Below the pieces are notes generated by a model. The model was not told the origin of the DNA, searched no databases, and worked only from the letters and a program-made list of their open reading frames with translations. 64,000 bases of DNA from Elusimicrobia bacterium RIFOXYA2_FULL_47_53 (GTDB taxonomy: Bacteria; Elusimicrobiota; Endomicrobiia; Endomicrobiales; XYA2-FULL-47-53): NCBI GenBank assembly GCA_001800315.1, contig MGVE01000017.1, positions 4,942-68,941 of the forward strand. The letters are read 5' to 3'. Positions within the stretch are counted from its first letter, which is position 1. Every line of letters starts with the position of its first letter. Below are positions 28,673 through 50,600 of the stretch, piece by piece. The position numbers were made by a program, and so were the translations under genes.

Positions 28673-29227
28673 ATGGGAAAAAGTGCAGCAATCATCCTGC
28701 TTTTTTCTATGCTGGCGAACACACTGTCGCCGCGCAGTTTTCTTTTTGACGAAAACAGCGGCCTTGTCGCCGGAGCCTTAGGCGCGCAGACTATGGTCGT
28801 CAGCGTTCTTCGCTTCCCTTTTCATCCCATGAAGGCTGTAAAGGAACTCTACGATAAAAAAACCCCTCTTCCCTTTTCTCCGTCTAAAAACAGCGGCAAA
28901 CAGGGCCGCAGGACGGCCGGGGAATTTGAATATACGGTTTCGCTTGATAACCTGAAAGACAACAGGTTTGACAACACCTTCATTCTTGTAAATACTTTGG
29001 TTTCCTGCTCGCGTTCGCTTACTTTAACCGTCGGTAATATTAAGAATAATTCTCCCGGCGGGAATACTTTCGCGGCACTTTTGATATTCCTGATGTTGTT
29101 TGCTCTGCGCCCGAGAAGCTCAATAAACAGCGACAATATATTTCCGATAAAATATACAACTCTTAATCTCCGCCTCTTAACTGACGGCGGGGATTTTTTT
29201 ACTTACGGTACAGGGGAGATTTTATGA
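28673..29227 (+). CDS. Small membrane protein, paralog A (precedes giant ORF 1)
   Basis: ORF 28664..29227. ATG 28673 was chosen because 'MGKSAAIILLFSMLANTLSPR' aligns residue for residue with 'MKKALVLIILAAMVANFLVPR' of 47105. It has a second shared hydrophobic block, 'LLIFLMLFALRPRS'. Its stop overlaps the giant ORF start (ATGA). Confidence 0.6.
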   Translation: MGKSAAIILLFSMLANTLSPRSFLFDENSGLVAGALGAQTMVVSVLRFPFHPMKAVKELYDKKTPLPFSPSKNSGKQGRRTAGEFEYTVSLDNLKDNRFDNTFILVNTLVSCSRSLTLTVGNIKNNSPGGNTFAALLIFLMLFALRPRSSINSDNIFPIKYTTLNLRLLTDGGDFFTYGTGEIL

Positions 29228-32200: not shown

Positions 32201-35200
32201 GAAGCATTTTGGGTAGTTATCGTAAAGATGTCTCCGGAGATGAAAGCGATTCAAGCGGAAGTTCTTCGCAGTATGACTCGGTGTCAGGAAAAACCGCCAT
32301 TCAGACAGCAGGATTAGGTAATTCCGGTTCCTCTCCCGTTGGTAGACAAGTTAGGAGCGAAGCTTCTGCCGGATTGTCGGAATCGGAATATGATAGTGGA
32401 TATAGCGGCAGAAGAGTTCTTTCAAGGACGGATGAGTCAGATATGTCCTACGGCCGCCGGATAGTTGACAGTTCCAGCGGCGATGAATCCTTTACTATGG
32501 CTATGGCCGGTTTTGGCGCCAAAAGATTTGGCGCTCAGGATGAATTATCCGAAGAGGATCAGGCTCTTGCTGAAGAGTCTGAAAAAATGGTTGACGATAT
32601 TGAAACCAAACTGAAAAACTATCAGAAAGCAAGCGCTAAGGAAAAAGCAAAGATAGCCGAAGAGCTGGGTGTAAAGCCTGAAGATCTGATGAATTTGACG
32701 GATCTGGAGATAAAAAGAATTGTTCATAATCTCAGGTCTATGGGCGGCGATCTGGCGAGAAATTATCAAAAAGCTAAGGATGAAAATACTTCCGGAAGTT
32801 TTTCGCTTGATGCTTTGCAAAACAGGGGATTTGATACTTCTCGTACAACGGCTGAAAAAACCAATGATTTATTCAAAGATATTATAACCGGCAAGGGTGT
32901 CAGGAACTCTTCGGAAAACAAAGATGGTCAAAATGAACCGCAATTTGATGAGTTTGGCGGCGCTTCTTATCAGTCTGCGGGCATGCGCGGGCAGAGTGAC
33001 GGCTACAACAAAAGTGTTTATGGTAGCGGGACCACTCTTCAGGAGTTGGGTGCCCGCGGCGCGAGTGCGCTGAATGATTTATTCCACCAGGGTTATAGTC
33101 TTTTTGAGGCCGCCGGGATGCTTGCCCAGGCAAAAGAGTTTTCTAAACTGCCTCAGGAAGTGCAGGACCAGTATAATCAGGCAGCTGATAAGATGACCGA
33201 TGAAATTGAAGAATGGTTATACGATTTTGAATCTGCCGATGCTGCCGGTAAAGAGAAAATGGCCAAAAAATTCGGCCTTACGGTTGACGAGGTAAAAAAC
33301 CTTACAGCTGATGGAATAGATCAGTTTGTTGGAATGCTCAGGATGCAGCGCGGCATGGCGCTGGCATTTAGTCCGGGCCTGAATAAACTATTTTCAGCTT
33401 TGCAGGGAAACGGCAAGAAATTTGACATGGCAAAGGTCGCCGGAGAGGCATTTTTGACCAATTTCCTTGTCGGCGGTTCGCGGGCATCAATTAAGAATGA
33501 GTCAAACGATGTGACAGGTGAAAATTATTCTACGAGAATTCCGCCCAGCCTCACCCTTGACCTGTACAGCGTGCGCAAAGTAGCAGCAAAATATGGCGTT
33601 GAAATGGGTATGGCATACAGGACCGATCTGCAGGGGCTTAAAGACGCCCTGGCCAACGGAACGGAGGTGGAAGTATACTGGTCACAGTATGGAAATAATA
33701 ACCTTGTCAAACTAATAGCGATAGATGGCGGACAGGTAGCTTTCATGACTGAGAGCGGCCAGGTTATGAATATTCCGGAAAAAGACTTCATATATAACTG
33801 GAAAGACGGCCTGGTTTTTACAAATGAGGAAATAACCAGAGGAGTAGCTGTCAGTGAAACTGAACTGAAGGGCCTTGGAATAAATAACTTTTCAGGAATC
33901 AAAAAAGAAAAAAGCAAAAAGGGTTTCCTTGGCGCAATAATAGGAGTTGTGGCCATTGTGGCCATGGTAGTAATATCCATATATTGCCCTCCTGCTGGTG
34001 CCGCTATAGGTACAGCTGCGGCCGGTGCGGGTACCGGTACGGCAGCTGCCGTAGGAACAACTGCTGCAATTGGAACATCATTGACTGCGACAGGTGTGGG
34101 TATGATGTCAGCCGGCGCGGCCATGATAGGTACGGGTATAGGAGCAACGATTGCAGGAGTAGGTATGGTTGCTGCCGGTGCTGTTGTTGCCGCAGCTGGT
34201 GCCATTGCCACAGCTGCTGCAGCGATAGGTGCGGCATTTTCCGCTGCTGGAGCTGCTGTCAGTAGCGCCATGGGACTTACTGGCGTCGCAGGTTCATTTG
34301 TTTCTGGATTTGTCTCAGGCGCTCTCTCGTCAATGGCCATGAGTATGGGTACTCAGCTGATAATGACCGGCTCAATAGATTTCGGCCAGGTTTTAAAATC
34401 AGGGCTAACTGGCGGTTTGACGGCAGGCATAATGCAGGGAATAAATGCAGGATTTGATGTGGCCATGGGCAACCCAATAGGATCAGCTGGTGGTGGCCTT
34501 TCAGGATTTGTAGAGAATTCGTTGGGTTTTGGAAGTTCTGCCGGCGGTTTTGCAAGTAATTTGATGCAGGGCGCAATAAGCGCGACGGTGGATTATGGTA
34601 TAAATGGTGGAAATTTTGTTGATAAACTTTCAAATCTAGGAATGAGTATCGGTAGCGGATTATTGGGTTTTGCTTCGGAAACATTAGGACTGGGTAAGGT
34701 ATTTAATAATATTGGGGCGTTGGCAGGTGAAATAGTTTCCAATGCGGTTAAAGGAGCTGTAGGAGCGTTGGTAGATTATGCCATAAACGGCGGCAATCTT
34801 GCTGAAAGCCTTACCAGGTCAATTGTCGGGTCAGCAATGAATGGCTTGGTTGGAGTAAATGGCTTAGGGCTTACTGGACAGCCCGCAAGCTCATTTATGG
34901 GAGATTTCTTTGGTACTGCTATCGTGAACTTTGTCACTGATACCGTTACAGCTTTGGTAAGCGGGAATGAATACGATTTTATGGACACTCTAACAAATAG
35001 CTTGTTGTCCGGATTTACAACAGCTACGACCAATTATGTGCTGGAGAAGCTATTTACTGAGAACGAAATTAAATTTGCGGATAAATATGGCTTTATTAAT
35101 GACCCCACGAGAACAGCTGACTACGCATCTGTATCGTTTGTTATGTCAGCTTTATCAAGTTTGACGGGTATAGCGGTAAAAAGCGCTCTCGGAATAAAAA

Positions 35201-38200
35201 TCCAGGATGGCGCAATCAATAGCGCCATTGCGGCAGCTTTTGAATCAGCCTTTAAGCCCTATTTGATTGGTATGTATAACAGAGGTGAGGCAGCTGTTTT
35301 GAGCGCTCAGGCAAGAGCAAATGGCTGGGGAGATAAAGACAGCGGCTTCTATATGGCTCCCCAGGATGACATAGAATTATTGCGTGACATTGACGGCAAT
35401 ATTAATATTATTAACGGTACCGCTCGGTACGGTTATGAAGATGGTGTGCATTATAATGTTTCTTATAAAGAAGGTAATTATTCTGAAATCCGTGTTAATG
35501 ATAAAGAGAAGGGTATTGTTAACGAATTGGCTGTCACAGGCCCTCAGAATGGCCTTGCTCAGGGTATTCTTGGCATTGATCCCCAAGGCATAATTAAGGG
35601 CAAAATGGTATTTGGACAGATTTACTATTGGAATGGTGGAACCGGAGTTGGCAGACTTTCTGATTCAAGCCTTTTTAAGGATGGCAAGTATTCTTACACC
35701 CTGGGTGACGGCAGGCTGGGCGTTGATATTACTCAAGAGCAGGGTAAATATGTACTGAACTTTAGTGTTGATAATGCTGCGGTGGATATGTATGGTTCAT
35801 CAATCGCGGGCACTGTTTTTACTTCGGATAACAAAAAAGAAGTCTATGTTCTTGATAAGAACGGCGAGCTTGTTGATGTAAAGGCAGGTGGTGTAACAAA
35901 AATGTCGGTAGGCGATGTTACCGTGGAATTTGGTTTTGATGATCGCGGCTATTTTAAAGGCGATATAGTTTCCAAAACAACTTTCACGAATATTGATGGG
36001 GTTACTAATACCTATACCCTGGACAGAGCGCTTATGCAGAAGGGTAAGACCACGATTTATTCTGCCAAGGGAGAAGATGGTAAGTCGTATCTCCTGGAAT
36101 TTAATGCCGATTTTGAGCTTGTGATTAAAGATGTTTTAAAAGTAAATCAGTCTTCTGCTAAAAATGGTGTTAAAGATGTTATAGAAGTGGATAAGAATAC
36201 CGGCGAGATTACAGACAGTTATCAGATGTTGTTAAAACAGCAGGATATGAGCGAAGCGACGAAGGCGATGTTCGGAAATAAATCCGAATTAAGAATAACG
36301 AGTTCGTTGATGAAAAATTTTGATGAAACGGCGGAGTCAAGTAAGTTCGCTTTCGTAAAAGGCGCTGATGGAAAAGAGTATGTGGTCGGATTGGATGATG
36401 AAAATAATATCAAAGATATTTTGACGGGCGAAGTGGCAAATAAAAATGGTGATTGTTTAATAACTTATAGTTCTGATGAAAACGGTGTTTTGGAAAGCAC
36501 AAAAACTCGGCTGATGAATAGTGACACGCTTAACCTTGAGGATAACGAGCGTGATGCCCTTTTTGGGGATAAAGACTTAATTGATGTGACAACGCAAAAA
36601 ACTGGTAGTGGCAAAGATCTTAAGATGTATGGCGAGATAAAAGACAAAGAAGGTAATGTTATTTATGTTTTGGATTTTGGGAGTGATTATGTGGTTGACG
36701 GGCTTCTCAGGAATAACACTACTCTTAATAACGGTATTCAGAAGATAAATTATACTTTTGACAGCAGTGGAAAAGTTAATAAGAGCGAGACTTGGACTGT
36801 CGCCGGTTCCGATTACGACGCCGATCAACTGAAGTTTACGGAAAATGCCGACGGGCGGAGCGTTGTTCAGGCAAGAGACAAGGATGGCAAAATTAAAGCC
36901 ATTGATTATGTAGATTATAAGGATGGGGAGTATCTTGATGGAGGGGCAATAGACAAGGACGATGAGTTTGTGCAATATAGGGGTGAAAATGGTACGGCAT
37001 TATATGCTTCTTGGGACGGCAAGTCCGAGCTTCTTTCAAGTTTTGGCGATGGCAGAAAGACAGCAGAGCTGGTAATAGGCGGGAAAACATTAAAAGTTGA
37101 GATAACTAAAGACGGAAAAGGTTTGCGTCTTACTGACGGGCCTGCAAAGATTGGCCTTCCCGGCGGCAAAGACCTGGTGATTGATGAGGTAATTAAATTA
37201 GATACCGAGAGAGGAGACCTTACCTGCACCGGCAAGTTGAATGTCGGAGCAGGCGAATCGGCTGAATTTGACAAGGAACATGTTTTTGCTGAGAAAAATT
37301 CTCAGGGTGGGGATCCGGGTCCGGATAAGTCGAAAACTAAGGCCAATACTGAAGTAGGACTGCAAATAGACAAAGATGGAAAAGTAACTATAACCGGTGA
37401 AAAAGGCGAATCATCGCTTGATGTCAGTTTCAGTTTTGAAGCTGCCCTTGGCGGTACGGACAGTATTGAAAGAAATATGCGCCTTGAAGGTTTTGCAAAA
37501 GGGACGCAGATTAACTTTAGATCTGATTATAGCGCCTCTGTTTCAGGCACCGGCTATAACAGCCTGCTCGTGACTGCCGGATCTTCAATAGTCATTCAGA
37601 GAGAAGGCGGCATAATGCAGAACCTTGACGGCCTTGCTAAAGGTTCGTATATCGTAAAGGGTGTAAACGCGGATGGCGCTAAAGTGACACACGAGGAGCG
37701 CGCCGCGTCATCTGTCGGGCAAATCAAGTCAATTGATACAATTCAAAAAGGTTCCCAGACTACGACAGTTGAAACAAAAATTGGAAGTGTTGAAAACGGG
37801 AAAGTAACGGATTATACCTATACTTACAATGGGGTTGCTTCTTCTGAAGACGCTCAGTTAGATGGTGATAGAGGAACACTTATTGTTTTTGAAGACATGG
37901 GTGGTGTTATTTTAGGCAGGGATGCTAATGGCATAACTACGCTTTCAGGAATTGTTATGTCCGGCACCCTGAAGTCTGGTGTAGTTGATGGGAGAGATTA
38001 CGCGTATTCATTTAATATTTCAGGGCATAAAGGGGATTATCGGCTTGACACACAACTTTTTGTTGGCGGTGTGCCTTACAATCCGGTTGACCTGATTTCC
38101 AGGCAGGGTAATGTGTCGCGTAGTTTGTATTTTGGCGGCAAGGAAGGTAAATACTCCGCGCTTGCAATAGATTTTAAAGATGGCGATATCGTTGGTATTC

Positions 38201-41200
38201 ATGGTGTCCAGTTAACTGGGAATAATCAGGAAGTTGAGCTGGGTAACGGTAAATCGGCAATATTCTTCAGGAACGCAGATGAAGTTCTGACTTACCAGGG
38301 GAGTTATGATACAGGAAGAATAAGTGAGAAAAATGGAGACATATATGTGTCCGATTCTATATTGAAATCCTTTGGTGTTAATAACAGTATGAATATTAAA
38401 GGAGATTTAATATTTAGAAATAACGGGACAATGAGCTCGGAATATAAAGAACTCTACAAAGGTAAAGAACTTGTAGGTAATCTTGAAAACAAGGGCAATG
38501 GTTTATATGCTGTCATCCCTCCTAATGGAAGCGATAAGATAGACCCAATCGCAGTTAAGGCCAAGGACGGCAAGGGCGGCTGGACGGATGCCGATTTTGA
38601 AATATCCAGCCTCCAGTTTAGCAATGATGGAACAACTACCGCCATGGGAAGGCTATTGCTTGATTCCGGTGAAAGTGTTGGCGGAGCAAAACTAAGTGAA
38701 ACTCTTGGAGGGGAAGGTGGGAGCGCCCCGGAGAATAAGCTTGGCAAGCCTGATTATTTCTTAACAATAGATGGTGATACGATAACAAATACTGGCGCGA
38801 ATGAGGTTGGATTCAGCGTTTCAGTGTCTATGGATCAGCTTGCTAACGGTCAGATAACAGAAATGACAGTAACTGGTTTTGATACTTCAACCCAAGTCAC
38901 GGTTTTGAAAGCTCAGCTTAATTATTCAAGGCCGCTTGGAAATGGACTTACAGCTACAGGCACAGTCACTATTCAGAATAAAATATTTAGTATTTCCCGG
39001 CCTGGTGGTTTGATGGCAAACTGGGATACAATGGAAAATGTCCAGGGTAAAAATGGTGCGGCGTTTGAAGCGGTTTCAATAATTGATTCCAAGGGAAATA
39101 TCGTTAAAGATGAAAAAGGTAACTTGGCTCAGGGTGTAAGAGTATTTGGCGACAAAGGCAAGGTGGAGCAGAGTGGAATAGCCAATATTCAGCTCCAGGG
39201 TAGCTGGATTGATACTTCAACGGCTGAGTTTGCTACAAGGACAGTATACCAGGACTTCGGCGCCGGAGTTGTTGATGTGCTTGCGGGTTCAGTAAAGGTG
39301 CTGTTTGAGGATTCTACTGAATCCGGTTGGAATAAAATATTTAGTGGCGTTGCTCAGATGTATGGTGGTGGTTTGGGTGTCATTTCTGATATTTATGCTA
39401 CAGCAAGTAATTTAGTGAAGCTTATTCCGGCATCGACACGAGTTGAAGCGGAAGAATATTTAATGAATAACAGTATCCTCGCCCAAGGAGCAGTTAGCTT
39501 ATATAATGCATCTTCAGAGCTTGTTCAGTCTGTATTGGGGTATGTGACTGATTCTGGTGTAGATAAAAATAAAGCGATAGACAATATTAAAAATAATCCA
39601 ATAATTATTGGTTTTGAAAATGCAATGTCGGGATTAGCTTCTTTTGCAAATAAAACTTATGATTTCTTGGTCGCCGTCGGTTCCGTTACTACAGGTCTGA
39701 TAATTAAGGCTGTAACTTGGATCCCAAATGCAATAATGGGTATAAAGGCTGGTGATTACAGCGATGATTTTGCAATTAAAAATAACAGCTGGACTAAGTT
39801 TGGTGATGAGATGGAAGCCTGGGGTTTAAGTACTTTGACGGGCAAACAATATGCCTCAGGTAAGGATTTGACATATTCTGATGCTTTTATCGTAGGCGCA
39901 AAGATTGGTGCAACACTTGCCGTTGGGACAAAATTATTGACTGCCGCAAAATCCATATTTGGTGTCAGTTTTAAATCAATTGTTACCGATGCTGTAAATG
40001 CTGGTGTAATAACTACGGCGGCAAATATGGGTACTAATGTTGTTTTGGGTAAGCCGATAACCGCTGAGAATATTACATCTTCATTCTTGTCAGGAGTACT
40101 TATGGGCGGAGGGTTGTCATTAGGTTTAAGAGGTATAGGCGCTGCTCTGGGTACATCAAGCTTTATTGCAAATAGGGTTGCCGGTGGTAAATTGTTTGGT
40201 CAGATAGCAACTTTTGAAAAGACTTACCTTGCAGGTATGGATTGGTTGGGTATGTCGGCGATCAATGGTACTATCCGCGTGGTTAATGCAGTAGATGCAT
40301 GGGCTGCCACCGTTGCTAAAGGAGTTATGACCGCGGCTTCAAGCGGAACGGCTATGATAACCTATGGAGGCGTCTGGAATTTCGCAAAAGTCGCTCCGAT
40401 TTTTGGTGTCGTTGAGACTGTTGGCGGCCTAACCTGGGATATGGTAGTCAAGGGTAAGGATGTAAATGAGAGCATTGAATCAAGGGGTGGGATCTATGCC
40501 ATGGCAACAAGAATAGTAACTCAGCCGTTTGAGTTTGCAAAAATGGCCCTCTGGCTTCAGCCTATGATGGGGGTTGCCCAAGCGACTGATAAAGTTGTAA
40601 AGGCATTGCTTGGAGAAGGGCGTTTTGGCCAGACAATGAGAGTTCTCTCTGGCGAGCATAGCGCGAGCAATCTTATTAGAAGCGGAAAAGTGCTTTTTGA
40701 CTACTCCGGTAAAATTAATGTGGAAGCTTTAATCGCGAGAAATCTTGAAAGACAGGCGGCTAAGCATGGGTTGGCTGCACAGTTTGATAGCGCAATATTT
40801 ATTTCCGGAACGCTTTCAGCAAGCGCTTCAATAGGTACACTGATAGGCTCAACGGTTTTTGGTAAAGATAATAGCGCTATAAATCCTCTGACCGGTATGA
40901 CCGAGGCTCAGGAATGGGGGCAGTCATTTGCTTTCTGGTCTCTGTTGTTCCTGCCTCGTTCTACCGTTACGGGGGTTAAACTTTCCAAAGCTCTTGGAGT
41001 TGAGAATGCTAACAAGTTGCTGAGTGGGTCTGCGGCAGGTGATGTTAAGATTAAAGACATACTTACCGGCGACATTCCTGCTTTTGGAGAAATGCCTGTC
41101 GCGAAGGCTCGGGAGTATATAGCTAATGAGTTTCTTGGAAAAAGGTTTGAGGTCGGTTCAATAGATTTTGAGAACAGTAAAATTGCCATAAAAGAAATAG

Positions 41201-44200
41201 GTGAAGGGAATTATGCTCTTAAAGGTGAAATAGTAGCCAATCGCGGCGCTAATGTTAAAGTTGATATCAAGGATTATGGTTCGGTCACGCTTGAAACTGC
41301 GAGCGAACAGGCAAAGTTTGAAGTCACTTACGATGTTGGAACTAATATGTCCAGAGTAACCCTCAAAGAGGGCGGAAAATTAAGTATTAATGAGAATACG
41401 GGTTCAATGAAACTTCTGGTTAAAGAAAACGCAGGTTCAGCTGAGGGCACGAAAGTAATTGAGGTTGTTTCAGGGGAAGTTGAGGTTCGTGGCGGGAAGC
41501 TTATTCTTGACCTTGCAAATGTTAAATATGAGGTTACTGACAAAAATGGAGATGTTAAAGAAGAGAGCGGCATGATTCTTAATCTGGAGCTGGCAAGCCG
41601 TGGTGAAAGCGGTGATTTCAAATTCAATTCTGATATTTCCTTTGATATTGTCCGTGCTGGTAATGATGCCGGTAAGTTTATCGGAGATGCTAAGGAAAAG
41701 ATTGGCTCGGTTATATCTAAAATGAGTGAGGGGGACACAGCATTTTCTTACAAAGAATTGCTTAGTAGTGCTTTTAATCTTTCTGCCGGCAACAAAAAAA
41801 TAGTTATTGATTTTATTAAAGAAAACTTTAAGGCGAAAACAAAAGATGGTCAGAAAGAAGGGCAAGAGATGGGAACGGAACAAGCCGAACATTATTATAA
41901 TCGGGCTATGGATGCGTATAAGAAGGATGTTTTAAAAGCAAATCGTTTCGTTGATGAAGCGATTGGTAAAAATGAAGTCTCAGGTGAAAGTAAAGTCGTT
42001 TTGGAGAAGAACTCAAAAGCAGATAAGGATGGTTTTAAAGGGGCAGTTAACAGATATACAGGCCAAGTTATTGAAACCCTTAGAAAAAATGGTGTTGATT
42101 TGGATAAGACAACAAAAGATCTCGTGCGCGAGTATGTGTCTGGTAGGCTGTCTGAATTAATTAATGAACGCATTAAGAACCTTTCTGGTAAACACGGAGA
42201 CAATATCTTGGCTGCCGCCAAAGAGTTGGGAGATTTGATGGGTGTTGATACAAATCACATGCAAGGGATTATTAATGGTAAAATGGTTGGCGATGCTGTT
42301 ATAAAGGTGCTTAATGCGTTGTCTCGTGATGGTATTGATCTTCGTCCCGGCCAGTGGGACACATTGCGCTGGGCTATCGAGCTGACCGTAGGGAAAACTG
42401 ACAGGGTGCTTCTAAATAACCCTACTGCGGCCGGAAAAACTCTGAGCGGACATATCATTGCGCTATTCAGGGGCTCTTTAGGTTTGAAAACAGATATTTT
42501 CGCGCCCAATACTGCCCTTGCCAAGCAGGCTATGGAAGGCAAGGTGAATGGAAAAGCTTATGAAACTTTACACGGATTTAAAAAACCGGTAATGTTTGAC
42601 GATATTGTGCGGCAATATACTGATCCTAACAACAAACTTTCAGCGGCAGAAGTTATTAAAATTCTTGAAACAGCTGATACTTTGATATACACTCAGAATT
42701 CATTTTTCCTTATGCAGAATGCAAGAACCAATGGGGACAAGGCTTTAATGAAGGCGCTTGAGACAAGAATGCGCGACACTATGCTTGTGCTTGATGAAGC
42801 CCATCTCTATATGAAAAATGTTATGGACCTCATAATAGCGGGTGATCCTATCCCGCTTGACGCGTTGGAAAGACAGCACTTTGAAATGGTGTTTGACAAA
42901 TTGCAGCAAGCCGGGCTTGTTGATAAGGACGGGCATGTTGAACAAAAAGTTGTTAGGGATATGGTTGAGGACGGCGGGGCTCATGTTGCTTTTAAAAAGA
43001 CGGCTGAGGAAAAGCTTCTGAAAACTTTCAGTAAAAATGAGCTTGGTACTGCGGAAAGTATTCTTTCCGGTATGCTTGGGGTTGTTAAAGGGCAGATACA
43101 TGTTGACATAAATGGAGTCAAGCCTATAAGCGGTTCTACCGGACAGATAGAATATTCAAGGCAGTTCCAGGATATGAGTTTTATTCTTGGAGCGGGCAAA
43201 CAGGGTAATCTTGGAAAGCATAATAAAGAAGCCTTGTATGCTGCCGCAACCAGGTCGCGCACTGTTTCAAGTGAGGGGCTTGTTACAATATTCGGCCGTT
43301 TTGGCAAGGTCCTCGCGATGACAGGCACGCCGCCCGATCGCGCGGTTGCTAAACTTTGGGGCTTTGGAGAAGCGAAATCTATTGGTTTTGCCGGTGGTGT
43401 TGACATTAACTATGTGAATGTCAGCGGAGAGAGCATCCCTGCTATGGTGAAATTTATTGTAGACAGATATATAGCAAATGATAAAATTCAATACATTATA
43501 CAGCATGAGCAGGTTGATAAGGTTATGGATGCTCTAAAGAATTATATCGGTGAAATAAAAGACCCTGCCATGCGGCAAAAACTTTTAGATAATCTTGTAA
43601 GAGTTGGGGAAGACAGGATAAGCCCTCTTGCATCCGGCGGGTATATTGGGAAAATAGTTGCCGCCAACAAAATCGCCGGACTCGGCGTTGACTATAAAAT
43701 TGATCTTGTTTTTGCCACCGACGCGAGATATTCGGAAGCCATTGTAAGGCAAGCCAAGGGAAGGCCGAGCAGGAGCGGTGAATATGGCGAATTTCATGTT
43801 TTCGGTGAAAGAGAATGGATTGACAAGAGATATAGTGAACTTTATGAACTTAAGTGGCGGAGCACTACAAATGAAATCCTGGAAGGACTTGGTGAAGTGG
43901 AAAGATTTGAAAAACAAAAAGCAGAGCTTTCAGGCAAAAAGGATTCTGCCGATAGAACAGCCGCCGAAGCCGAAATTAATGAAAAGCTTTATATTGAGAA
44001 GCTTCAGTTTATTCAGAAATATATGGATGCAAAAGACGAGGCTGATGTGTGTGTGCAGACCGTTTCTCAGGCACTAAGGGATTATGTTATTGAAAGAATC
44101 AGCGTGTCAGAGGCTGATAGAGCCCTGTTTATGAAGGAATTTCATAAGAATGAGGGCATTGAAAAAGGCAAAGCCTCAAAACAATTTAATAAAGGCAGCT

Positions 44201-46872
44201 TTGACGGCGAAATGCAGTTGAGAAACACCTTAGAGGTTACGGTGGCTTCGCTTAAGGCGGTCGTTAAAGACAAGGCGATCCTTGCAGAGCTTAATTCACT
44301 TAAGCTTAAACCCGGCGAAGGCAAAACCGGTGTTGAGTCTTTGACGGAGGCATTGAAGGGAACTGAAAATGTAATGCAGAGGATAGTTGACGCCGGCTAT
44401 TCCAACGCAAAAGACCTGGTTCCTGTTGAGATACTTTTTGGCGCTCCTGTTGTATCCCAGCAGTTTGTTGATTCTCGCGCGGCTAAATCGCAGAAAATCA
44501 ACGAAGTCACAGGTCCGGCGGAAAGGTACCTGTCGGACATTAAGGAAAACAATGATAAATATACCTATTCGCGGTATGTTGAGGAGAACGGCAATCTTAC
44601 CGTTGCCGGACAGATGTTGGTTTACCTTGTAAATTCTGCCGGCAGTTTATACAGCGCCATGGTGAGCGATGATGTTTCTGCCGCCAGACCGATTGATTTA
44701 ATCCTCAAAACAATGGAAGGTATAATGAATTCCAACGACTGGGAGCAGGAGTTGCTCTCAACGGTCATGGATGAGGCAAAGAAGAATTCCCAGAGTTTCG
44801 CGCAGGCCAACTCCGGAACAGCGGCAGATGTCAAGCTCACTCCGTTATATGACGACTTTAGACAGCTTAAGGAGGGCGGAGACAATATTCGCAATCTTTC
44901 TAAGCCTGGGGTTTCCGGTCTGAAATCTTTGGCATTAAATTATTACGCAAGATTAATGCCAATGCGTCAATCTAAAAACGCCATAAACTCAATCTATCGG
45001 CGTGTTGTGGGCGATCCGACTATAGCTCCTGAGGAGAAAGCCGCGCTTATAGACGCTTTATGGACAGTTGCTTCTTCAAATCCAGCGATGGCGGGAAAAG
45101 TTAAAGGCACAGGTGCTTATAGGGCTTCTATAATGACTGCCGATCAAGCCAATGCTCTGAAGAATTTGATCGCATTCCCTAACTCAGGATTTATTTGGAA
45201 AAATGTCATTATAAATGATGTAGTAAAATCAATACAAAGTGGAAATATTGCCAATCTAATACTCAGCCTGAGTCCAGGCGATAGTGTTCTTCCGCTTGTC
45301 GCTAAGGCTATTCAGGAAATCCCGGGGAACAGGGTGCTTACTATGGCTCAGGCAAATGCGCTTGCGACTGATATTGCCGGCAAGGCGAACATGCAGGGTA
45401 ATGTGCAAGATATTCTTGAAAAGGTACTGTTTGCTGGCGGGTTGGCCTATTCTGAAAACTTCAAGATTGATATTGAAAATGTTATTAATAGATTTGCCGA
45501 GGTTAAAAATTTAATTCAGGACACGGACTTTACCGACCGCATTACTATTGATCAGCTTGTTGCCAAAGATTTCGATGCCAAGAACTCATATAAGCAATAT
45601 CTTGCATCGGTTAGATCGAGCGCATTGGCAAGATCGGTCTCTAGGGCTGATATATTCGAGGGAGTAGTAGATTCATATTTGAGCAATTCTGCGGATAATC
45701 TGAAGGATTATTCAGCTGCGGATGACTATGTTATGTCTAAACGTGCGGCAAGCGGCCTGCAGACAGTCGATGGTATTGTCGCTTCGGTTTCCGATGAGGC
45801 AAGCGCAATAAAAGCTGCAGATATATTCCGTCGCAATATTGACTTCCTAGTTGATGACAGCCTTTTAAAAAGTATACATATGGCCGGTATGTTTATTAAG
45901 ATAGAAAAATCCATGGCAGACGCAGTAAAAGTTAATAATAGTGCACGTGTTCAGGCACTGGATGTTTTAAAGGGTGAGGTGTTAAAGTTTGTAACGGACA
46001 TGGAAGTTACAAAAATGGCTGAGCTTGAAGCAATAGGTTTTGAGTCTATAGTCTCGCTCGGGGCCGGTAAAGCTATAGAAGGCGCTGCGAATGCAATGGG
46101 TGTAAACACAAGGGGTTATATTGCTCCAGATATAATTGAGACGCTTTTGCCGAGCGTATATTCAATAACCGTTTACAATGCAAATACTGAAGACGCTATG
46201 TTCGCTTCTATTTTGCGCAATTATAGAAGCGGCCAAGAGCTTATTGTTAACGGTCTTGGTATGAAAGCTGATGAGGCTCTTACGGTCGCAGCGATTGAGG
46301 GTGCTTTCCTCGATAAATGTACAAAAATAATGGCCAGATTCAATAATGCTGATATCACTCTTGAAGAGGCGCTTCTTGAGATAGAAACTGTAAAGAAGAT
46401 CAAGTTTATTCTCTCGGTTGAGAACGGTGTTTCGAAATACAACGAGGTTAGAAGTGAATTGGTGGGCAAATTTGGGGACGAGCTGTCTGATATCGATCTC
46501 AAGAGTCTGCGGAAAATTGAAGCATATGCCAGCTTGACCAAGGAAGTAAGGGGGATCGAAGCTGTCCAGAAAGACATCGCAACACTGGAGTTTGTCGGCA
46601 GGCTAAGGGCTGAATCGCAGAAGAAGATGGTGTCCGATATTAAGGCCGGGACAGTCAATCCTTGGATGGTTTCAATCAGGACGATTAAGGGACTTGGCGA
46701 AACAATATCGGGATTTGTAGAGGGAGTCACGGGTTTTGCTCAGGGAAATAAGAAAGGTCCAGATGAACTGCTAAAAGATGCTTTGAGGAAATATGAGGGA
46801 TTTGACGAGGAAAATCTCAAAGTCAAGAGGATTGATGTGCAAAAATCTATGAAGATTAAATTAGCGGCGTAA
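29224..46872 (+). CDS. Giant mosaic membrane protein 1 (5,882 aa)
   Basis: Single uninterrupted frame in the ORF track. GGGGAG RBS 5 nt before the ATG. All other-frame ORFs across these 17.6 kb are short. Sub-domains are listed separately. Confidence 0.9.
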   Translation: MKTTNFSSESLLRMPLGILWKMLFSWIRKNAKKITAVNVIMVFLSFEMMWVSGYASTIKEIQDKKVSEQALGRWDKKVEFNGKSITYAPNGAAKSVKDNKTGMTEDFMETDGKVSVIISDAQGNVLSQKEMSKQDFVNYFKALTSGDSSKPDKDASNVQYGKVKVEDKSAKKSDGQYNLDSGVKQAGTAKSNVGGQVDLAALAAQSWQKEYSAASLSGKKQMVEQVGITEAEAQNFSRETAKKVQAHLGFTDKKQDESGITIKGLADVPEQIGRYVNKALAGMVNVVKSLVKGKEGKEVEVSIADIQGAAEKYGIRLKSSRGTVTDLKGVVADGPAIAHLNTGGKTGTFVVVKSIDDDNAAIINSDGSESTISVQDFEASWSGKMMSQKSDGPELVISEKKETKGRFYSEFFSSIGKVFGGRSGDLKNAVRGSPSDTEPVVAGAVGGQISEGTKTGQVSDLKGKPGQVQSSANDQSVVGQTISQIEKFLNDFVNASPAEKAKMAASLGVPVSQLANITAETASKIIDYLKSQGEGILNCAVQSLFNLFDSSGKSYSKSDVAAKAILVDIITGNVTKQAEQGGPLRLSMNAIQKTAGAYGVDMTGYSTDMAGLKDAVANGRGAVAYINTPDGQGHFVVVTGAKDGMITYTDADGKSYTVSESDFQSKWSGQVLSQEKVKSPNAVELGFSALKQTMGASMPPSNTYPTGAGESTPDPDASASAPAPDEESGDSDRGDGRSGIYGFGGDDDSAARAAEEARKAAEDARKAAEEAQRKAEEARKKAEEARKAAVDREEQKALDKAADEAERAAKEAIRKADELAKIADKTKTSAERKSVESVANSQPSVGADSQDTADVSVTGKMVRSAENAAVAPQQARGTMSDIIKKSFGLSGTEDKGESNARSNITGETADTASGLQDIANLRTSVGAVPSDEVPSAASRVVGPRSIGTESSDQEETVDSGRSAIQEGLRNVFGDIPAPVESAVSALEGTFNVRSILGSYRKDVSGDESDSSGSSSQYDSVSGKTAIQTAGLGNSGSSPVGRQVRSEASAGLSESEYDSGYSGRRVLSRTDESDMSYGRRIVDSSSGDESFTMAMAGFGAKRFGAQDELSEEDQALAEESEKMVDDIETKLKNYQKASAKEKAKIAEELGVKPEDLMNLTDLEIKRIVHNLRSMGGDLARNYQKAKDENTSGSFSLDALQNRGFDTSRTTAEKTNDLFKDIITGKGVRNSSENKDGQNEPQFDEFGGASYQSAGMRGQSDGYNKSVYGSGTTLQELGARGASALNDLFHQGYSLFEAAGMLAQAKEFSKLPQEVQDQYNQAADKMTDEIEEWLYDFESADAAGKEKMAKKFGLTVDEVKNLTADGIDQFVGMLRMQRGMALAFSPGLNKLFSALQGNGKKFDMAKVAGEAFLTNFLVGGSRASIKNESNDVTGENYSTRIPPSLTLDLYSVRKVAAKYGVEMGMAYRTDLQGLKDALANGTEVEVYWSQYGNNNLVKLIAIDGGQVAFMTESGQVMNIPEKDFIYNWKDGLVFTNEEITRGVAVSETELKGLGINNFSGIKKEKSKKGFLGAIIGVVAIVAMVVISIYCPPAGAAIGTAAAGAGTGTAAAVGTTAAIGTSLTATGVGMMSAGAAMIGTGIGATIAGVGMVAAGAVVAAAGAIATAAAAIGAAFSAAGAAVSSAMGLTGVAGSFVSGFVSGALSSMAMSMGTQLIMTGSIDFGQVLKSGLTGGLTAGIMQGINAGFDVAMGNPIGSAGGGLSGFVENSLGFGSSAGGFASNLMQGAISATVDYGINGGNFVDKLSNLGMSIGSGLLGFASETLGLGKVFNNIGALAGEIVSNAVKGAVGALVDYAINGGNLAESLTRSIVGSAMNGLVGVNGLGLTGQPASSFMGDFFGTAIVNFVTDTVTALVSGNEYDFMDTLTNSLLSGFTTATTNYVLEKLFTENEIKFADKYGFINDPTRTADYASVSFVMSALSSLTGIAVKSALGIKIQDGAINSAIAAAFESAFKPYLIGMYNRGEAAVLSAQARANGWGDKDSGFYMAPQDDIELLRDIDGNINIINGTARYGYEDGVHYNVSYKEGNYSEIRVNDKEKGIVNELAVTGPQNGLAQGILGIDPQGIIKGKMVFGQIYYWNGGTGVGRLSDSSLFKDGKYSYTLGDGRLGVDITQEQGKYVLNFSVDNAAVDMYGSSIAGTVFTSDNKKEVYVLDKNGELVDVKAGGVTKMSVGDVTVEFGFDDRGYFKGDIVSKTTFTNIDGVTNTYTLDRALMQKGKTTIYSAKGEDGKSYLLEFNADFELVIKDVLKVNQSSAKNGVKDVIEVDKNTGEITDSYQMLLKQQDMSEATKAMFGNKSELRITSSLMKNFDETAESSKFAFVKGADGKEYVVGLDDENNIKDILTGEVANKNGDCLITYSSDENGVLESTKTRLMNSDTLNLEDNERDALFGDKDLIDVTTQKTGSGKDLKMYGEIKDKEGNVIYVLDFGSDYVVDGLLRNNTTLNNGIQKINYTFDSSGKVNKSETWTVAGSDYDADQLKFTENADGRSVVQARDKDGKIKAIDYVDYKDGEYLDGGAIDKDDEFVQYRGENGTALYASWDGKSELLSSFGDGRKTAELVIGGKTLKVEITKDGKGLRLTDGPAKIGLPGGKDLVIDEVIKLDTERGDLTCTGKLNVGAGESAEFDKEHVFAEKNSQGGDPGPDKSKTKANTEVGLQIDKDGKVTITGEKGESSLDVSFSFEAALGGTDSIERNMRLEGFAKGTQINFRSDYSASVSGTGYNSLLVTAGSSIVIQREGGIMQNLDGLAKGSYIVKGVNADGAKVTHEERAASSVGQIKSIDTIQKGSQTTTVETKIGSVENGKVTDYTYTYNGVASSEDAQLDGDRGTLIVFEDMGGVILGRDANGITTLSGIVMSGTLKSGVVDGRDYAYSFNISGHKGDYRLDTQLFVGGVPYNPVDLISRQGNVSRSLYFGGKEGKYSALAIDFKDGDIVGIHGVQLTGNNQEVELGNGKSAIFFRNADEVLTYQGSYDTGRISEKNGDIYVSDSILKSFGVNNSMNIKGDLIFRNNGTMSSEYKELYKGKELVGNLENKGNGLYAVIPPNGSDKIDPIAVKAKDGKGGWTDADFEISSLQFSNDGTTTAMGRLLLDSGESVGGAKLSETLGGEGGSAPENKLGKPDYFLTIDGDTITNTGANEVGFSVSVSMDQLANGQITEMTVTGFDTSTQVTVLKAQLNYSRPLGNGLTATGTVTIQNKIFSISRPGGLMANWDTMENVQGKNGAAFEAVSIIDSKGNIVKDEKGNLAQGVRVFGDKGKVEQSGIANIQLQGSWIDTSTAEFATRTVYQDFGAGVVDVLAGSVKVLFEDSTESGWNKIFSGVAQMYGGGLGVISDIYATASNLVKLIPASTRVEAEEYLMNNSILAQGAVSLYNASSELVQSVLGYVTDSGVDKNKAIDNIKNNPIIIGFENAMSGLASFANKTYDFLVAVGSVTTGLIIKAVTWIPNAIMGIKAGDYSDDFAIKNNSWTKFGDEMEAWGLSTLTGKQYASGKDLTYSDAFIVGAKIGATLAVGTKLLTAAKSIFGVSFKSIVTDAVNAGVITTAANMGTNVVLGKPITAENITSSFLSGVLMGGGLSLGLRGIGAALGTSSFIANRVAGGKLFGQIATFEKTYLAGMDWLGMSAINGTIRVVNAVDAWAATVAKGVMTAASSGTAMITYGGVWNFAKVAPIFGVVETVGGLTWDMVVKGKDVNESIESRGGIYAMATRIVTQPFEFAKMALWLQPMMGVAQATDKVVKALLGEGRFGQTMRVLSGEHSASNLIRSGKVLFDYSGKINVEALIARNLERQAAKHGLAAQFDSAIFISGTLSASASIGTLIGSTVFGKDNSAINPLTGMTEAQEWGQSFAFWSLLFLPRSTVTGVKLSKALGVENANKLLSGSAAGDVKIKDILTGDIPAFGEMPVAKAREYIANEFLGKRFEVGSIDFENSKIAIKEIGEGNYALKGEIVANRGANVKVDIKDYGSVTLETASEQAKFEVTYDVGTNMSRVTLKEGGKLSINENTGSMKLLVKENAGSAEGTKVIEVVSGEVEVRGGKLILDLANVKYEVTDKNGDVKEESGMILNLELASRGESGDFKFNSDISFDIVRAGNDAGKFIGDAKEKIGSVISKMSEGDTAFSYKELLSSAFNLSAGNKKIVIDFIKENFKAKTKDGQKEGQEMGTEQAEHYYNRAMDAYKKDVLKANRFVDEAIGKNEVSGESKVVLEKNSKADKDGFKGAVNRYTGQVIETLRKNGVDLDKTTKDLVREYVSGRLSELINERIKNLSGKHGDNILAAAKELGDLMGVDTNHMQGIINGKMVGDAVIKVLNALSRDGIDLRPGQWDTLRWAIELTVGKTDRVLLNNPTAAGKTLSGHIIALFRGSLGLKTDIFAPNTALAKQAMEGKVNGKAYETLHGFKKPVMFDDIVRQYTDPNNKLSAAEVIKILETADTLIYTQNSFFLMQNARTNGDKALMKALETRMRDTMLVLDEAHLYMKNVMDLIIAGDPIPLDALERQHFEMVFDKLQQAGLVDKDGHVEQKVVRDMVEDGGAHVAFKKTAEEKLLKTFSKNELGTAESILSGMLGVVKGQIHVDINGVKPISGSTGQIEYSRQFQDMSFILGAGKQGNLGKHNKEALYAAATRSRTVSSEGLVTIFGRFGKVLAMTGTPPDRAVAKLWGFGEAKSIGFAGGVDINYVNVSGESIPAMVKFIVDRYIANDKIQYIIQHEQVDKVMDALKNYIGEIKDPAMRQKLLDNLVRVGEDRISPLASGGYIGKIVAANKIAGLGVDYKIDLVFATDARYSEAIVRQAKGRPSRSGEYGEFHVFGEREWIDKRYSELYELKWRSTTNEILEGLGEVERFEKQKAELSGKKDSADRTAAEAEINEKLYIEKLQFIQKYMDAKDEADVCVQTVSQALRDYVIERISVSEADRALFMKEFHKNEGIEKGKASKQFNKGSFDGEMQLRNTLEVTVASLKAVVKDKAILAELNSLKLKPGEGKTGVESLTEALKGTENVMQRIVDAGYSNAKDLVPVEILFGAPVVSQQFVDSRAAKSQKINEVTGPAERYLSDIKENNDKYTYSRYVEENGNLTVAGQMLVYLVNSAGSLYSAMVSDDVSAARPIDLILKTMEGIMNSNDWEQELLSTVMDEAKKNSQSFAQANSGTAADVKLTPLYDDFRQLKEGGDNIRNLSKPGVSGLKSLALNYYARLMPMRQSKNAINSIYRRVVGDPTIAPEEKAALIDALWTVASSNPAMAGKVKGTGAYRASIMTADQANALKNLIAFPNSGFIWKNVIINDVVKSIQSGNIANLILSLSPGDSVLPLVAKAIQEIPGNRVLTMAQANALATDIAGKANMQGNVQDILEKVLFAGGLAYSENFKIDIENVINRFAEVKNLIQDTDFTDRITIDQLVAKDFDAKNSYKQYLASVRSSALARSVSRADIFEGVVDSYLSNSADNLKDYSAADDYVMSKRAASGLQTVDGIVASVSDEASAIKAADIFRRNIDFLVDDSLLKSIHMAGMFIKIEKSMADAVKVNNSARVQALDVLKGEVLKFVTDMEVTKMAELEAIGFESIVSLGAGKAIEGAANAMGVNTRGYIAPDIIETLLPSVYSITVYNANTEDAMFASILRNYRSGQELIVNGLGMKADEALTVAAIEGAFLDKCTKIMARFNNADITLEEALLEIETVKKIKFILSVENGVSKYNEVRSELVGKFGDELSDIDLKSLRKIEAYASLTKEVRGIEAVQKDIATLEFVGRLRAESQKKMVSDIKAGTVNPWMVSIRTIKGLGETISGFVEGVTGFAQGNKKGPDELLKDALRKYEGFDEENLKVKRIDVQKSMKIKLAA
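29323..29391 (+). other. N-terminal TM / signal-anchor of giant protein 1
   Basis: 'ITAVNVIMVFLSFEMMWVSGYAS' preceded by the basic 'RKNAKK'. Confidence 0.6.
29990..30387 (+). other. C39-like module A, degenerate (no Cys or His at the aligned positions)
   Basis: 'IAHLNTGGKTGTFVVVKSIDDDNAAIINSDGSESTISVQDFEASWSGKMM' aligns with the C-terminal half of module B. Confidence 0.45.
30820..31250 (+). other. C39-like papain-fold cysteine peptidase module B (Cys and His present)
   Basis: 'GILNCAVQSLFNL' (Cys codon 30838-30840) ... 'GQGHFVVVTGAKDGMITYTDADG...FQSKWSGQVL' (His codon 31123-31125). This pattern is typical of the peptidase C39 / C39-like families. Confidence 0.6.
31471..31698 (+). repeat. 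Charged Ala/Glu/Lys/Arg coiled-coil-like low-complexity repeat
   Basis: 'AARAAEEARKAAEDARKAAEEAQRKAEEARKKAEEARKAAVDREEQKALDKAADEAERAAKEAIRKADELAKIADK'. Confidence 0.8.
33355..33825 (+). other. C39-like module C, degenerate
   Basis: 'SPGLNKLFSAL' replaces 'NCAVQSLFNL', and 'NNNLVKLIAIDGGQVAFMTESGQVMNIPEKDFIYNWKDGLVF' replaces 'GHFVVV...WSGQVL'. Confidence 0.45.
33921..35060 (+). other. Gly/Ala/Ser/Thr-rich hydrophobic region (multi-helix membrane block 1 of giant protein 1)
   Basis: 'GAIIGVVAIVAMVVISIY...AAGAGTGTAAAVGTTAAIG...GMVAAGAVVAAAGAIATAAAAIGAAF...'. Small-xxx-small patterns run for about 380 aa. At DNA level, GCWG-rich low complexity gives spurious ORFs in several frames. Confidence 0.6.
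39240..40980 (+). other. Second hydrophobic region of giant protein 1
   Basis: Many 18-25 residue apolar segments, such as 'FLVAVGSVTTGLIIKAVTWIP', 'AFIVGAKIGATLAVGTKLLTA', 'FLSGVLMGGGLSLGLRGIGAAL' and 'AFWSLLFLPRS'. Confidence 0.5.
42343..43815 (+). other. SecA-like DEAD-motor ATPase domain inside giant protein 1
   Basis: Walker A 'NNPTAAGKTL' (42427-42441 = AAGKT). 'LVLDEAHLYMKNVMDLIIAG' (DEAH 42793-42804). About 176 aa to 'VLAMTGTPP' (43318-43329). Then 'AANKIAGLGVDYK' and 'QAKGRPSRSGEYGEFHVF' (43750-43773). Confidence 0.6.
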
Positions 46873-47658: not shown

Positions 47659-50600
47659 ATGAACATTCAAAAACTTAAGCGGAAGCTGATGGAAGGCGTT
47701 GCCCGGCCGGTCTGGGGAACTCTTAACGCTCCGGTGCCGGTTCTTCTGGAAACGGCCTCGGAGTATTTTAGCTTTATCCGCGCGGTAGCTATTGTCACGG
47801 TCACATGCTTTATCGTCTCCTCAATAGCGGGGCCGGCCATTGCCCAGGTTTCGCAGGTGGCGGAGGAAAACAGAAAATACGCGCAGGTTTTTGATGATTT
47901 CGTTCTTCCCTATACGGCCGCCCGCATTACAGGAGCAAGCTATTCCGCCAGCCCCAGGGTTGTAATTCAGATACAGGACCTTCACTGTCACGGCGAAGTT
48001 CAGCGCAATATAAACAGGGTTTTAAGCCTTGTAAACGAGAAGTATCCGGTCTCAAAGATCTATCTTGAGGGCGCCTATGGTTCTGTTGACACCTCCTGGC
48101 TTAATGCCATATCTGATAAAGAAATGCGGCAGGCTGTCGTTGAATCCCTCGTGGATCAGGGCAAGCTGACCGGCGTTGAATATTTCTCCGCTTCAGGAAA
48201 CTCAGTTCCGGTTATGGGGCTTGAGGATAAGGATATATATAACGCAAACCTTTTGCGTCTTGGCAGGATACTTGATAGCCAAGCGGATGTGGATAAGGCG
48301 CTTTCAGGAATTGAGTTGGAGCTTGCAAGGCTTAAAGCCAGGTACTACAACCCTAAACAAAAGGCGCTTGACATTCTATCTGCCAAATACAGAAAGGAAG
48401 AGGTAAAAACCAACGATTTCTACCGCGAGCTTAAAAAATTAGGCGATAAAAACGGACTTGACATATACGAGTACAGGAATATGACGGCATTTCTCGGGCT
48501 TATGGAGCTTGAGAAAGAGCTCAACTACAAGAGGATAAGCCGCCAGCTGCAGGAGTTTATAATAACACTCAAACAGCGCCTTCCCTACGACGCCTACAAG
48601 GTGCTTCTTGAAAAAATGAACGATTTCTCGCGTTTAGACGAGCTCTATGTTTACCTTATTAAACTTGACCGCGATTTTAAGTTGGGACTTTCTAATACAT
48701 TCCCGAATCTGAGCACTTTTTTCGCTTATATTGACGCAAGCCAGAAGGTAAATCCAGTTAATCTCGTTAATGAAGAGAGAAGGTTTGTGCGGGAACTGCA
48801 GAAAAAGCTTTCCGCCAATGCCACCGAGAAAGAAGTGGTTTTTATAGCGGATTTCTATTCAACACTTGCGGAATACTATACAAACCGCCTGACAGCGGAA
48901 GATTATGAATACTATTTGAAAAATGAAAGAGAATTTAAGGTATTGTGGTCCAAGTATTCGGATTCCTACTATTTGTCCGGATTAGAACCCTTTAACGCCA
49001 TTCTTAACGACTACTATGTCGCCAACATTGAGCGCAACAGGCGTTTTGTCAAGAATATTCTATCGGCCTCGGATACCCCGGCTGGAACAGAGGCGTCGCC
49101 TTATGTTAATAGTGTTTCTGAAACGCTGAAATCACTGAAAAATGCGACTGAAATTGACATTGTAGTAACCGGAGGTTTCCATACTTTAGGGTTGAGCGAA
49201 CTGCTTGCGGAAAAGAATATTTCGTACCTTGTAATAACCCCTAATGTCACAAAGGACACAAAGTATGCCAGCGATGTCTATAACGCTCTGGCTAAACAAC
49301 AGTTCAAAGTTCTATTAGGAGAGGAGAGGCCTTCAACCTCGGCCCAAATCCAGGGCCAAACGACCGATCGTTTTGCTAAGAACACGCCGCAGAAAGGCGC
49401 GTTAGCGTTGCCGGTTATTTCTGGAGATGAATGGGATGCGGGTTACATCCATTCCGCCACCTTGGCTCAAGGTGGTTTAGGGGCACTTGTCAAAGCGAAC
49501 AGCGATCCGAATTCAGTCGTAGGCCAAATCAACCGTGAAATTTTAAAGGACGGCAGAATTAAGATGTCTTACAATGGCGAAAATGAGTATTCACTCCGCG
49601 ACGGCAGTTACGGTAAAATAATACAAAAATACACCGTTACTCCGGAAGGTAATGTGGAGATCGTTGGTTCAAGCGAATTCTCGTCAAAGCCCCAGGCGTT
49701 TGGCCTGACCAGCAAAACCCAGCTGATTAGCGAAGTCTATATTTCCATGCTTTCGGTAGGCGTGTCAGCCGTTCCTTTTATGAAATTAGCCGAGTACACC
49801 TTGGCTTTTCAGAATATGTCGGTAAAGGCGCTTGATAACTTAGTCGGCAAGTCAAGAAGTTATGACGGCAAAACTTTCAAAATAGTTAATGATAGCAGGC
49901 TTGAACCCGCCAGTCAAAAGGCTCTTGCCGCGCTAAAGACAAAATTGTTGGAGAGAAGAACTGAGTTAAGGCAAATTACCGAGAAATTCGCCCCGGAAAA
50001 CACAAACGGTAGAATGCCGGTCACTATCAATGTTGTAGAGGGCGATGTGCTGCCTATTGACGATGATTCTCTCGCTTTTGCTACCGTTAAACTGGATAAC
50101 GGCACGCTTGTTTTATATATCACGGAAGGGCTTTTGAAGAGTATTTCCAGGATTCCGGCCGGCGACAAGAAGGAAAGGATTATTAAGTCGCTGTTGCAGT
50201 GGGAATTGTCCGAGTATATTTATCTTAACGTGGCGGATAACGCGCTTGAAACAAAGGACGGGCTCGGCCGTGTGGTAAGCCTGACTTATCGCGATTTCTA
50301 CAATAAAGAGATGAAAGAAGCGCAGGTTAAAGGGGATAAGTGGGAGTTCGCGGAACTCTTTGCTTTTGCAGATAGGGAAAGGGCCAAACTGCAAAAGCTG
50401 GTCTATGAAGAAGCCAAGCGGGTTACATTGGTTCCGTCCACCAGAAACTCAATAGATAAAATTTCCGATCCGGTTGAAAAGAGGCAGGCTTACGCGGCAG
50501 CAATAAGGTCTGCGGTTAGAGCATGGACAATCTCGTATTTGAACGAATACAAGAAGGAGCGCGCGGGTGATTTAGTCGCGTTAGTTGGAGAAATTACTCC

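Follow-up and report, generated by a model that had tools for sequence, protein, structure and literature searches.

A probable, highly diverged SecA-type ATPase domain behind a putative transmembrane block in a giant protein from an Elusimicrobia genome

Introduction

Bacteria export, or insert into the membrane, proteins whose length runs from thousands of residues to more than 100,000, and SecA-like motors built into such proteins are the main published clue to how this is done. Divergent versions of the SecA DEAD helicase domain and of the preprotein-binding domain of SecA are encoded in most giant Omnitrophota genes, where they follow transmembrane anchors, have neither the scaffold nor the wing domain and are accompanied by C39 peptidases near the N-terminal signal, and self-export of these proteins has been suggested (West-Roberts et al. 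2023, bioRxiv 10.1101/2023.11.21.568195). Also, in a set of 916 long proteins from Omnitrophota, the two most populous architecture clusters are those of C39 (PF03412) and SecA_DEAD (PF07517) (Nielsen and Lui 2026, bioRxiv 10.64898/2026.06.07.730766). Here, we analyze a 64,000-nucleotide stretch of bacterial chromosome of groundwater origin (the window) from Elusimicrobia bacterium RIFOXYA2_FULL_47_53 (contig MGVE01000017.1, positions 4,942 to 68,941 of the forward strand), in which two very long open reading frames (ORFs) on the + strand lie downstream of housekeeping genes. The first of them, giant ORF 1 (29224..46872, + strand, 5,882 amino acids (aa) according to the ORF list and its translation), hosts an ATPase domain at 42343-43815, which corresponds to aa 4374-4864 and is translated with no stop codons. 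An original prediction took this region for a SecA-like motor and regarded its fusion into a multi-transmembrane giant protein as an architecture not known to have been described; on this last point it was wrong, the architecture having been published in the two studies cited above. We put at about 0.65 the probability that residues ~4373-4880 of ORF 1 constitute a very diverged ATPase motor of the SecA type, which is located behind a transmembrane block and represents a rare sub-clade of the described giant-protein modules.

Results

The flagged region is an SF2/DEAD-like ATPase composed of two RecA-like domains, in which motifs I, Ia, II, III, V, and VI can all be located. The first part of RecA-like domain 1 (42340..42843, + strand), delimited by motif positions, Pfam DEAD and ResIII matches and the hhalign alignment to SecA, contains a Q-like motif (LRPGQWDT, aa 4373), the Walker A motif (NPTAAGKTL, aa 4399-4407), motif Ia (PNTALAKQ, aa 4428), and the Walker B DEAH box, which begins at aa 4524 within LVLDEAHLYMKNVMDLIIAG (aa 4521-4540), a segment that also includes LIIAG (aa 4536-4540), corresponding to LIISG in SecA. 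Then, an insert of 147 aa (aa 4541-4687; 42844..43284, + strand), in register in the hhalign alignment, occupies the position of the preprotein-binding domain (PPXD) of SecA and carries AHVAFKKTAEEKL, with VxLTExG as its SecA counterpart, and GVKPISGSTGQIEYSRQFQD (aa 4631-4650), with GEVxIVDExTGRxMxGRRxSD as its counterpart. The end of RecA-like domain 1 together with RecA-like domain 2 (43285..43863, + strand; motifs, hhalign and a weak Helicase_C match) comprises motif III (MTGTPP, aa 4699-4704, with TGT beginning at aa 4700) within FGRFGKVLAMTGTPP (aa 4690-4704), motif V (LGVDY, aa 4819-4823) within AANKIAGLGVDYK (aa 4813-4825), and motif VI (QAKGRPSR, aa 4843-4850, with GRPSR at aa 4846) within QAKGRPSRSGEYGEFHVF (aa 4843-4860). 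All six motif strings on which the original prediction was built lie in ORF 1 where it had placed them, in one frame, and the strings that it gave for Escherichia coli SecA are all present in the real K-12 protein.

A comparison of the distances between motifs in ORF 1 and in E. coli SecA gives 125 and 106 aa, respectively, from Walker A to motif II, 176 and 182 aa from motif II to motif III (DEVD to TGT in SecA), and 146 and 182 aa from motif III to motif VI. Between Walker B and motif III, at the SecA position, lies an insert that is also comparable in size to that of SecA. The 176 residues that had been counted between DEAH (aa 4524) and TGT (aa 4700) are thus confirmed, and the accompanying remark that some 30 residues separate these motifs in ordinary SF2 helicases is borne out by DEAD-box proteins (31-33 aa) and HsdR (44 aa) but not by DinG (~170-215 aa). 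After motif VI, a stretch of 410 aa is conserved within the clade, and no SecA scaffold or wing (two-helix finger, C-terminal linker) is found in it (hhalign P = 0.21, in the wrong region). A conserved segment of this stretch, LVQxYMDAxAEGxVYVQT, was considered as a candidate for the SecA scaffold helix (LLEYDDV...) and was rejected on the same hhalign result.

When 1.84 billion representative proteins were scanned exhaustively with HMMER, only five relatives were retrieved, three in proteins of 3,055-7,221 aa and two as fragments, and pattern scans of genomes and metagenomes added three more full-length copies, for a total of seven distinct full-length copies. These relatives are found only inside very long ORFs, of 3-7 thousand amino acids (kaa). 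The seven homologues share 34-45% identity, and in all seven the catalytic positions are invariant, namely T-A-x-G-K-T of Walker A, D-E-x-H, G-T-P-P and Q-x-x-G-R-x-x-R. Since the nucleotide-binding and arginine-finger residues are all invariant, the domain would be an active ATPase. No match was obtained in word-indexed protein searches with the domain, with a six-sequence alignment or with a 213-aa core, and tblastn of the domain against plasmids gave nothing relevant.

The four genome matches of the clade correspond to three Omnitrophota metagenome-assembled genomes (MAGs) and one MAG labeled Endomicrobiales. The latter contains the homologue P0003 (JAFGGC010000001.1; 7,221 aa), encoded on a 200-kb contig; that this MAG is labeled Endomicrobiales and not Omnitrophota could reflect mis-binning, mis-classification or horizontal transfer. 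A remoter copy (Ga0124853_1121335) with 26% identity presents ~20 stop codons in the matched frame, being either a pseudogene or the product of a low-quality, frameshifted assembly.

For the profile-profile comparisons, a profile of seven clade sequences was used as the hhalign query against a SecA/SecA2 set of 12 sequences (E. coli SecA plus 11 records from a plasmid collection) and against control families, for which five DEAD-box paralogues of E. coli, four sequences of HsdR and five of DinG were taken. The alignment with the SecA/SecA2 profile reaches P = 4.6e-11 and a probability of 97% over 420 columns, which run collinearly from Walker A through the insert as far as motif VI, and two five-sequence SecA subsets give P = 5e-9 and 4e-8 over ~400 columns. 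For the control families, the values are P = 5e-6 over 85 columns for HsdR, 3e-5 over 73 columns for DinG, and 9e-3 over 72 columns for the DEAD-box proteins. When the inserts are deleted on both sides, SecA gives P = 8e-11, compared with 3e-6 for HsdR, 2e-5 for DinG, and 7e-3 for the DEAD-box proteins; deletion on one side only lowers the SecA alignment score from 96 to 46, and the insert contributes ~9 score units to the full SecA alignment. With single templates, the hhalign result for the E. coli SecA sequence is uninformative (probability 2.7%), and HsdR, RecQ, RecG, and DinG score above E. coli SecA.

The predicted structure leads to the same family. An AlphaFold2 model was built from a six-row alignment with no templates, with a predicted local distance difference test score (pLDDT) of 66.7 and a predicted template modeling score of 0.45, whereas the single-sequence prediction was useless (pLDDT 38). 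In a Foldseek comparison of the model with the PDB, ranks 1-9 are all SecA or SecA2 (E = 1.7e-11 to 3.8e-9), followed by XPD at rank 10 (E = 7e-9) and by DinG from rank 16 onward (~1e-7), with Hel308, Brr2, and RapA lower at ~1e-6 (RapA at rank 29). The second place of XPD and DinG would be due to the large insert that these proteins also have between motifs II and III. In total, 128 PDB matches show E <= 0.001, and among the matches listed, 50 of 50 are SF2 ATPases.

Sequence identity between the domain and SecA is ~15-17%. Pfam scans of the whole region return only the generic DEAD, ResIII, and Helicase_C families, all below threshold, whereas the isolated N-terminal domain passes the cut-offs for DEAD (26.9 bits against 26) and ResIII (24.2 bits against 22.5). 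Also, a weak match of the domain to Cas3 is obtained with PADLOC.

The ATPase belongs to a conserved module of ~1,070 aa (aa 4022-5090; 41287..44493, + strand; BLASTP), in which it is accompanied by conserved flanks of unassigned fold, aa 4022-5072 of ORF 1 being matched to residues 1470-2514 of the homologue P0001 with E = 4e-115. Ahead of this module, a crude Kyte-Doolittle scan delimits hydrophobic block 2 (aa ~3482-3875; 39667..40848, + strand), a putative transmembrane anchor that is conserved in P0001 and P0003 (BLAST of ORF 1 aa 3556-3911 and 3585-3949). The same crude scan places hydrophobic block 1, a Gly/Ala-rich putative transmembrane cluster, at aa ~1568-1985 (33925..35178, + strand). 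Within this block, DUF637 (possible hemagglutinin) is matched at 34315-34632 (+ strand) with 26.6 bits, exactly the Pfam cut-off; it could be a compositional artefact.

The N-terminal region of ORF 1 (29842..33906, + strand; Pfam and BLAST) contains three C39-peptidase-like domains (aa 207-388, 539-676, and 1300-1561), with a Pfam E value of 2e-20 for Peptidase_C39, and all three segments match the C39 region of P0003 by BLAST. Only the middle domain retains the catalytic Cys (aa 539, in ILNCAVQSL, aa 536-544) and the catalytic His (aa 634, in GHFVVV, aa 633-638); in the first domain, a Thr replaces the His (GTFVVV), and both residues are missing from the third. A resemblance is seen here to some ABC transporters of type I secretion, whose C39-like domains are inactive. 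P0003 has a second, C-terminal C39 domain with intact Cys and His. The order in ORF 1 is then C39, hydrophobic blocks and ATPase, and the whole layout of C39 region, hydrophobic block and ATPase module is common to ORF 1 and P0003. No nuclease, methylase or other DNA-related domain was found in ORF 1 by Pfam scans.

Giant ORF 2 (47659..64000, + strand; open frame 47650-63999) begins 790 base pairs downstream of ORF 1 and continues past the edge of the window, within which it already encodes more than 5,440 aa. A hydrophobic anchor is present at its N-terminus, together with ~15 hydrophobic segments, and its sole Pfam match is LysM (~52198-52365). ORF 2 could be a partner or substrate of ORF 1. 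BLAST detects no similarity between ORF 2 and ORF 1, which rules them out as paralogues, and none between ORF 2 and the homologues P0001 to P0005.

Upstream, the window contains genes for trigger factor, ClpX, Lon, a class-V aminotransferase, SerA, and TolC-like and AcrB-like proteins (261-17964), two large ORFs of 610 and 949 aa with no Pfam match (19415-24746, - strand), and a 732-aa TPR protein ahead of ORF 1 (25471-27669, + strand). Small + strand ORFs with no match also overlap the start of ORF 1 (28664-29227) and occupy the gap between the giant ORFs (46884-47614). The Lon protein is identical to one encoded on contig MGVL01000023.1 of assembly GCA_001800475.1, from a groundwater metagenome. 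The GC skew of the + strand is 0.14-0.27 over both giant ORFs (30000-64000), compared with ~0.02-0.09 in the upstream housekeeping genes, and probably reflects a coding composition rich in Gly and in Asp/Glu.

Discussion

SecA is the family nearest to the ATPase domain of ORF 1, both by profile-profile comparison and by predicted fold, and the kinship of the RecA core is joined by the position and size of the insert. In these aspects, the idea of a SecA-type motor stands, whereas the curated SecA models and the comparison of the insert with the PPXD do not support it. The insert is a likely candidate homologue of the preprotein clamp of SecA.

Several results weigh against the SecA assignment. 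SecA_DEAD (PF07517) and SecA_PP_bind (PF01043) have no match in ORF 1 or in five homologues at E <= 1, nor in the isolated N-terminal domain or the isolated insert even at E <= 10, and the NCBIfam SecA models do not match either, an outcome that the original prediction, which had proposed this search with profile hidden Markov models, itself counted as refuting. Moreover, SecA is not retrieved from PDB sequences by phmmer or by hmmsearch with the clade profile. A profile of four housekeeping SecAs alone gives P = 1.4e-4 over 405 columns, which is weaker than HsdR. Compared alone with the SecA PPXD, the insert gives P = 0.13 and 0.08, which is not significant even though both are in register, with VxFTExG opposite VxLTExG and GVKPISxxTGQxEYSRQFQD opposite GEVxIVDExTGRxMxGRRxSD. 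Single clade sequences reach the SecA profile with P = 1e-3 to 4e-2, compared with 3e-8 for RecG and 8e-5 for DeaD; they are no closer to SecA than these helicases, so the signal requires profiles on both sides. Also, the template modeling (TM) scores in Foldseek are ~0.3, and the model is of low confidence around the TGQ...RQFQD loop. Such scores are expected from a flexible three-domain model of moderate quality, and the structural evidence is then a ranking result, with SecA and SecA2 at the head of the PDB matches, and not the superposition on SecA that had been proposed as a check. Finally, the scaffold and wing domains of SecA are absent after motif VI, and the distance of ~170-215 aa between motifs II and III in DinG indicates that a long spacing is not unique to SecA.

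These data could instead be explained by an SF2 helicase or translocase that depends on nucleic acids, of the restriction/Cas3/ResIII kind or, with an insert of Arch type, of the XPD/DinG kind; it would act on DNA or RNA and have no specific kinship to SecA. The curated matches point in this direction, being only DEAD, ResIII, Helicase_C, and the weak PADLOC Cas3, as do the DEAH box and the TGTP motif III and the fact that HsdR, RecQ, RecG, and DinG stand above E. coli SecA as single templates. Moreover, XPD and DinG (Rad3) share with ORF 1 the DEAH box and a large insert between motifs II and III, with ~170-215 aa between motif II and SAT in DinG, and are the second-best fold matches, next after SecA (E = 7e-9 to 1e-7). 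However, HsdR, DinG, and the DEAD-box proteins align over 72-85 columns only, around Walker A and motif Ia (P = 5e-6 to 9e-3; for DinG, 73 columns and P = 3e-5), whereas SecA aligns over ~400 columns with P = 5e-9 to 5e-11. Between Walker A and DEAH (aa 4407-4523), the ORF 1 domain has zero cysteines, so the four-cysteine iron-sulfur domain of XPD and DinG is not present; these two motifs lie 125 aa apart, against 106 for SecA and ~175-195 for DinG, and motif III is TGTPP instead of SAT. For a ResIII, HsdR or SNF2 type in particular, the spacing of 176 aa contrasts with 44 aa in HsdR, the match covers 85 columns, and RapA appears only at fold rank 29. The setting is also that of a membrane-anchored protein, in which no nuclease, methylase or other DNA-related domain accompanies the ATPase. 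On balance, a nucleic-acid helicase is an unlikely explanation.

It could also be argued that the domain derives from SecA and is no longer a motor, being a structural or regulatory pseudo-enzyme module of a giant scaffold, as would fit its extreme divergence from SecA, the loss of the scaffold and wing domains, the Ala in Walker A where Gly is usual (PTAAGKT), and the very small size of the family. Against this, the Lys and Thr of Walker A, the Asp and Glu of DEAH, GTPP, and the Gln and both Arg of motif VI do not vary among the seven homologues, although these are only 34-45% identical; this indicates that catalysis is under selection and leaves the pseudo-enzyme with a slim chance. That short motifs came together by chance on an unrelated fold, as the failure of sequence-to-profile methods to match SecA might suggest, is effectively refuted by the profile-profile P values down to 4.6e-11, by the 128 PDB matches at E <= 0.001 (50 of 50 SF2 ATPases among the matches listed) and by the isolated N-terminal domain, which scores above the Pfam gathering thresholds of DEAD and ResIII.

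If the domain is a SecA-type motor, as we favor, the ~150-aa domain inserted between Walker B and motif III would serve as a polypeptide clamp, and the motor would handle or export protein segments while the preceding transmembrane block tethers it to the membrane. This role is suggested by the family resemblance and by the published hypothesis, and a cytoplasmic location by the need for ATP and the preceding hydrophobic block. The motor is C-terminal to all the transmembrane and presumed extracellular parts of ORF 1 and is translated last, so it could not assist their co-translational insertion in cis; its action would be post-translational or in trans, other copies of the protein or the adjacent giant ORF 2 being examples of possible targets.

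SecA pushes its substrate with a two-helix finger. Because the scaffold that bears this finger is absent here, the canonical push mechanism cannot apply unchanged. A further variant is that the clade constitutes a separate, unrecognised SecA-derived lineage, in which the scaffold and two-helix finger were lost, the preprotein clamp was remodelled, and the motor was fused to its own transmembrane block, giving a device, self-contained and independent of SecYEG, that would export or thread giant surface proteins such as ORF 2; we regard this variant as quite improbable.

A comparison with SecA and SecA2 shows that motifs I, Ia, II, III, V, and VI follow one another in the same order and at the same spacing, with an LIISG-like strand after Walker B and a ~150-aa insert between motifs II and III in both cases. 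However, the ORF 1 domain has DEAH in place of DEVD and PTAAGKT in place of TGEGKT, is devoid of the two-helix-finger scaffold, the wing and the C-terminal tail, and is embedded in a membrane protein, whereas SecA is soluble and docks to SecYEG.

A SecA-type domain in a giant protein is also found outside Omnitrophota, in the Mycolicibacterium arabiense plasmid pJCM18538 (MOBF), where a 3,473-aa hypothetical protein (record 188139-198560) contains a SecA-like motor with a preprotein-binding-type insert. This motor is a clear relative of SecA (hhalign P = 1.8e-34 against the SecA profile), whereas single sequences of the ORF 1 clade reach this profile only at ~1e-3, and the direct match between both is weak (P = 6e-4). 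Nonetheless, each is a SecA-type motor in a very long non-SecA protein that lacks the canonical C-terminal domains.

Finally, the closest likeness is with the SecA-like modules of giant Omnitrophota proteins (Archaeovorin and Dockerin types), as drawn from their published descriptions. ORF 1 differs from them in its much shorter length (5.9 kaa compared with >10-30 kaa) and in having no glycosyl-transferase, dockerin or methylase domains, and the Pfam SecA models from which the published set was defined miss its clade. The novelty is then modest, the architecture being already described and ORF 1 representing a rare, extra-divergent sub-clade that these models do not recognize, in a comparatively short host protein. 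Such motors would be undercounted in surveys that rely on PF07517, as the divergence of this clade puts it beyond the reach of the Pfam models. Moreover, this host of 5.9 kaa is comparatively small and offers a compact module of ~500 aa suited to expression and assay. In its general plan, ORF 1 agrees with the giant Omnitrophota proteins, being likewise very long and multi-transmembrane (according to the crude hydrophobicity scan), with C39 close to an N-terminal signal or anchor, the ATPase placed after transmembrane anchors, no scaffold or wing, and relatives in Omnitrophota MAGs.

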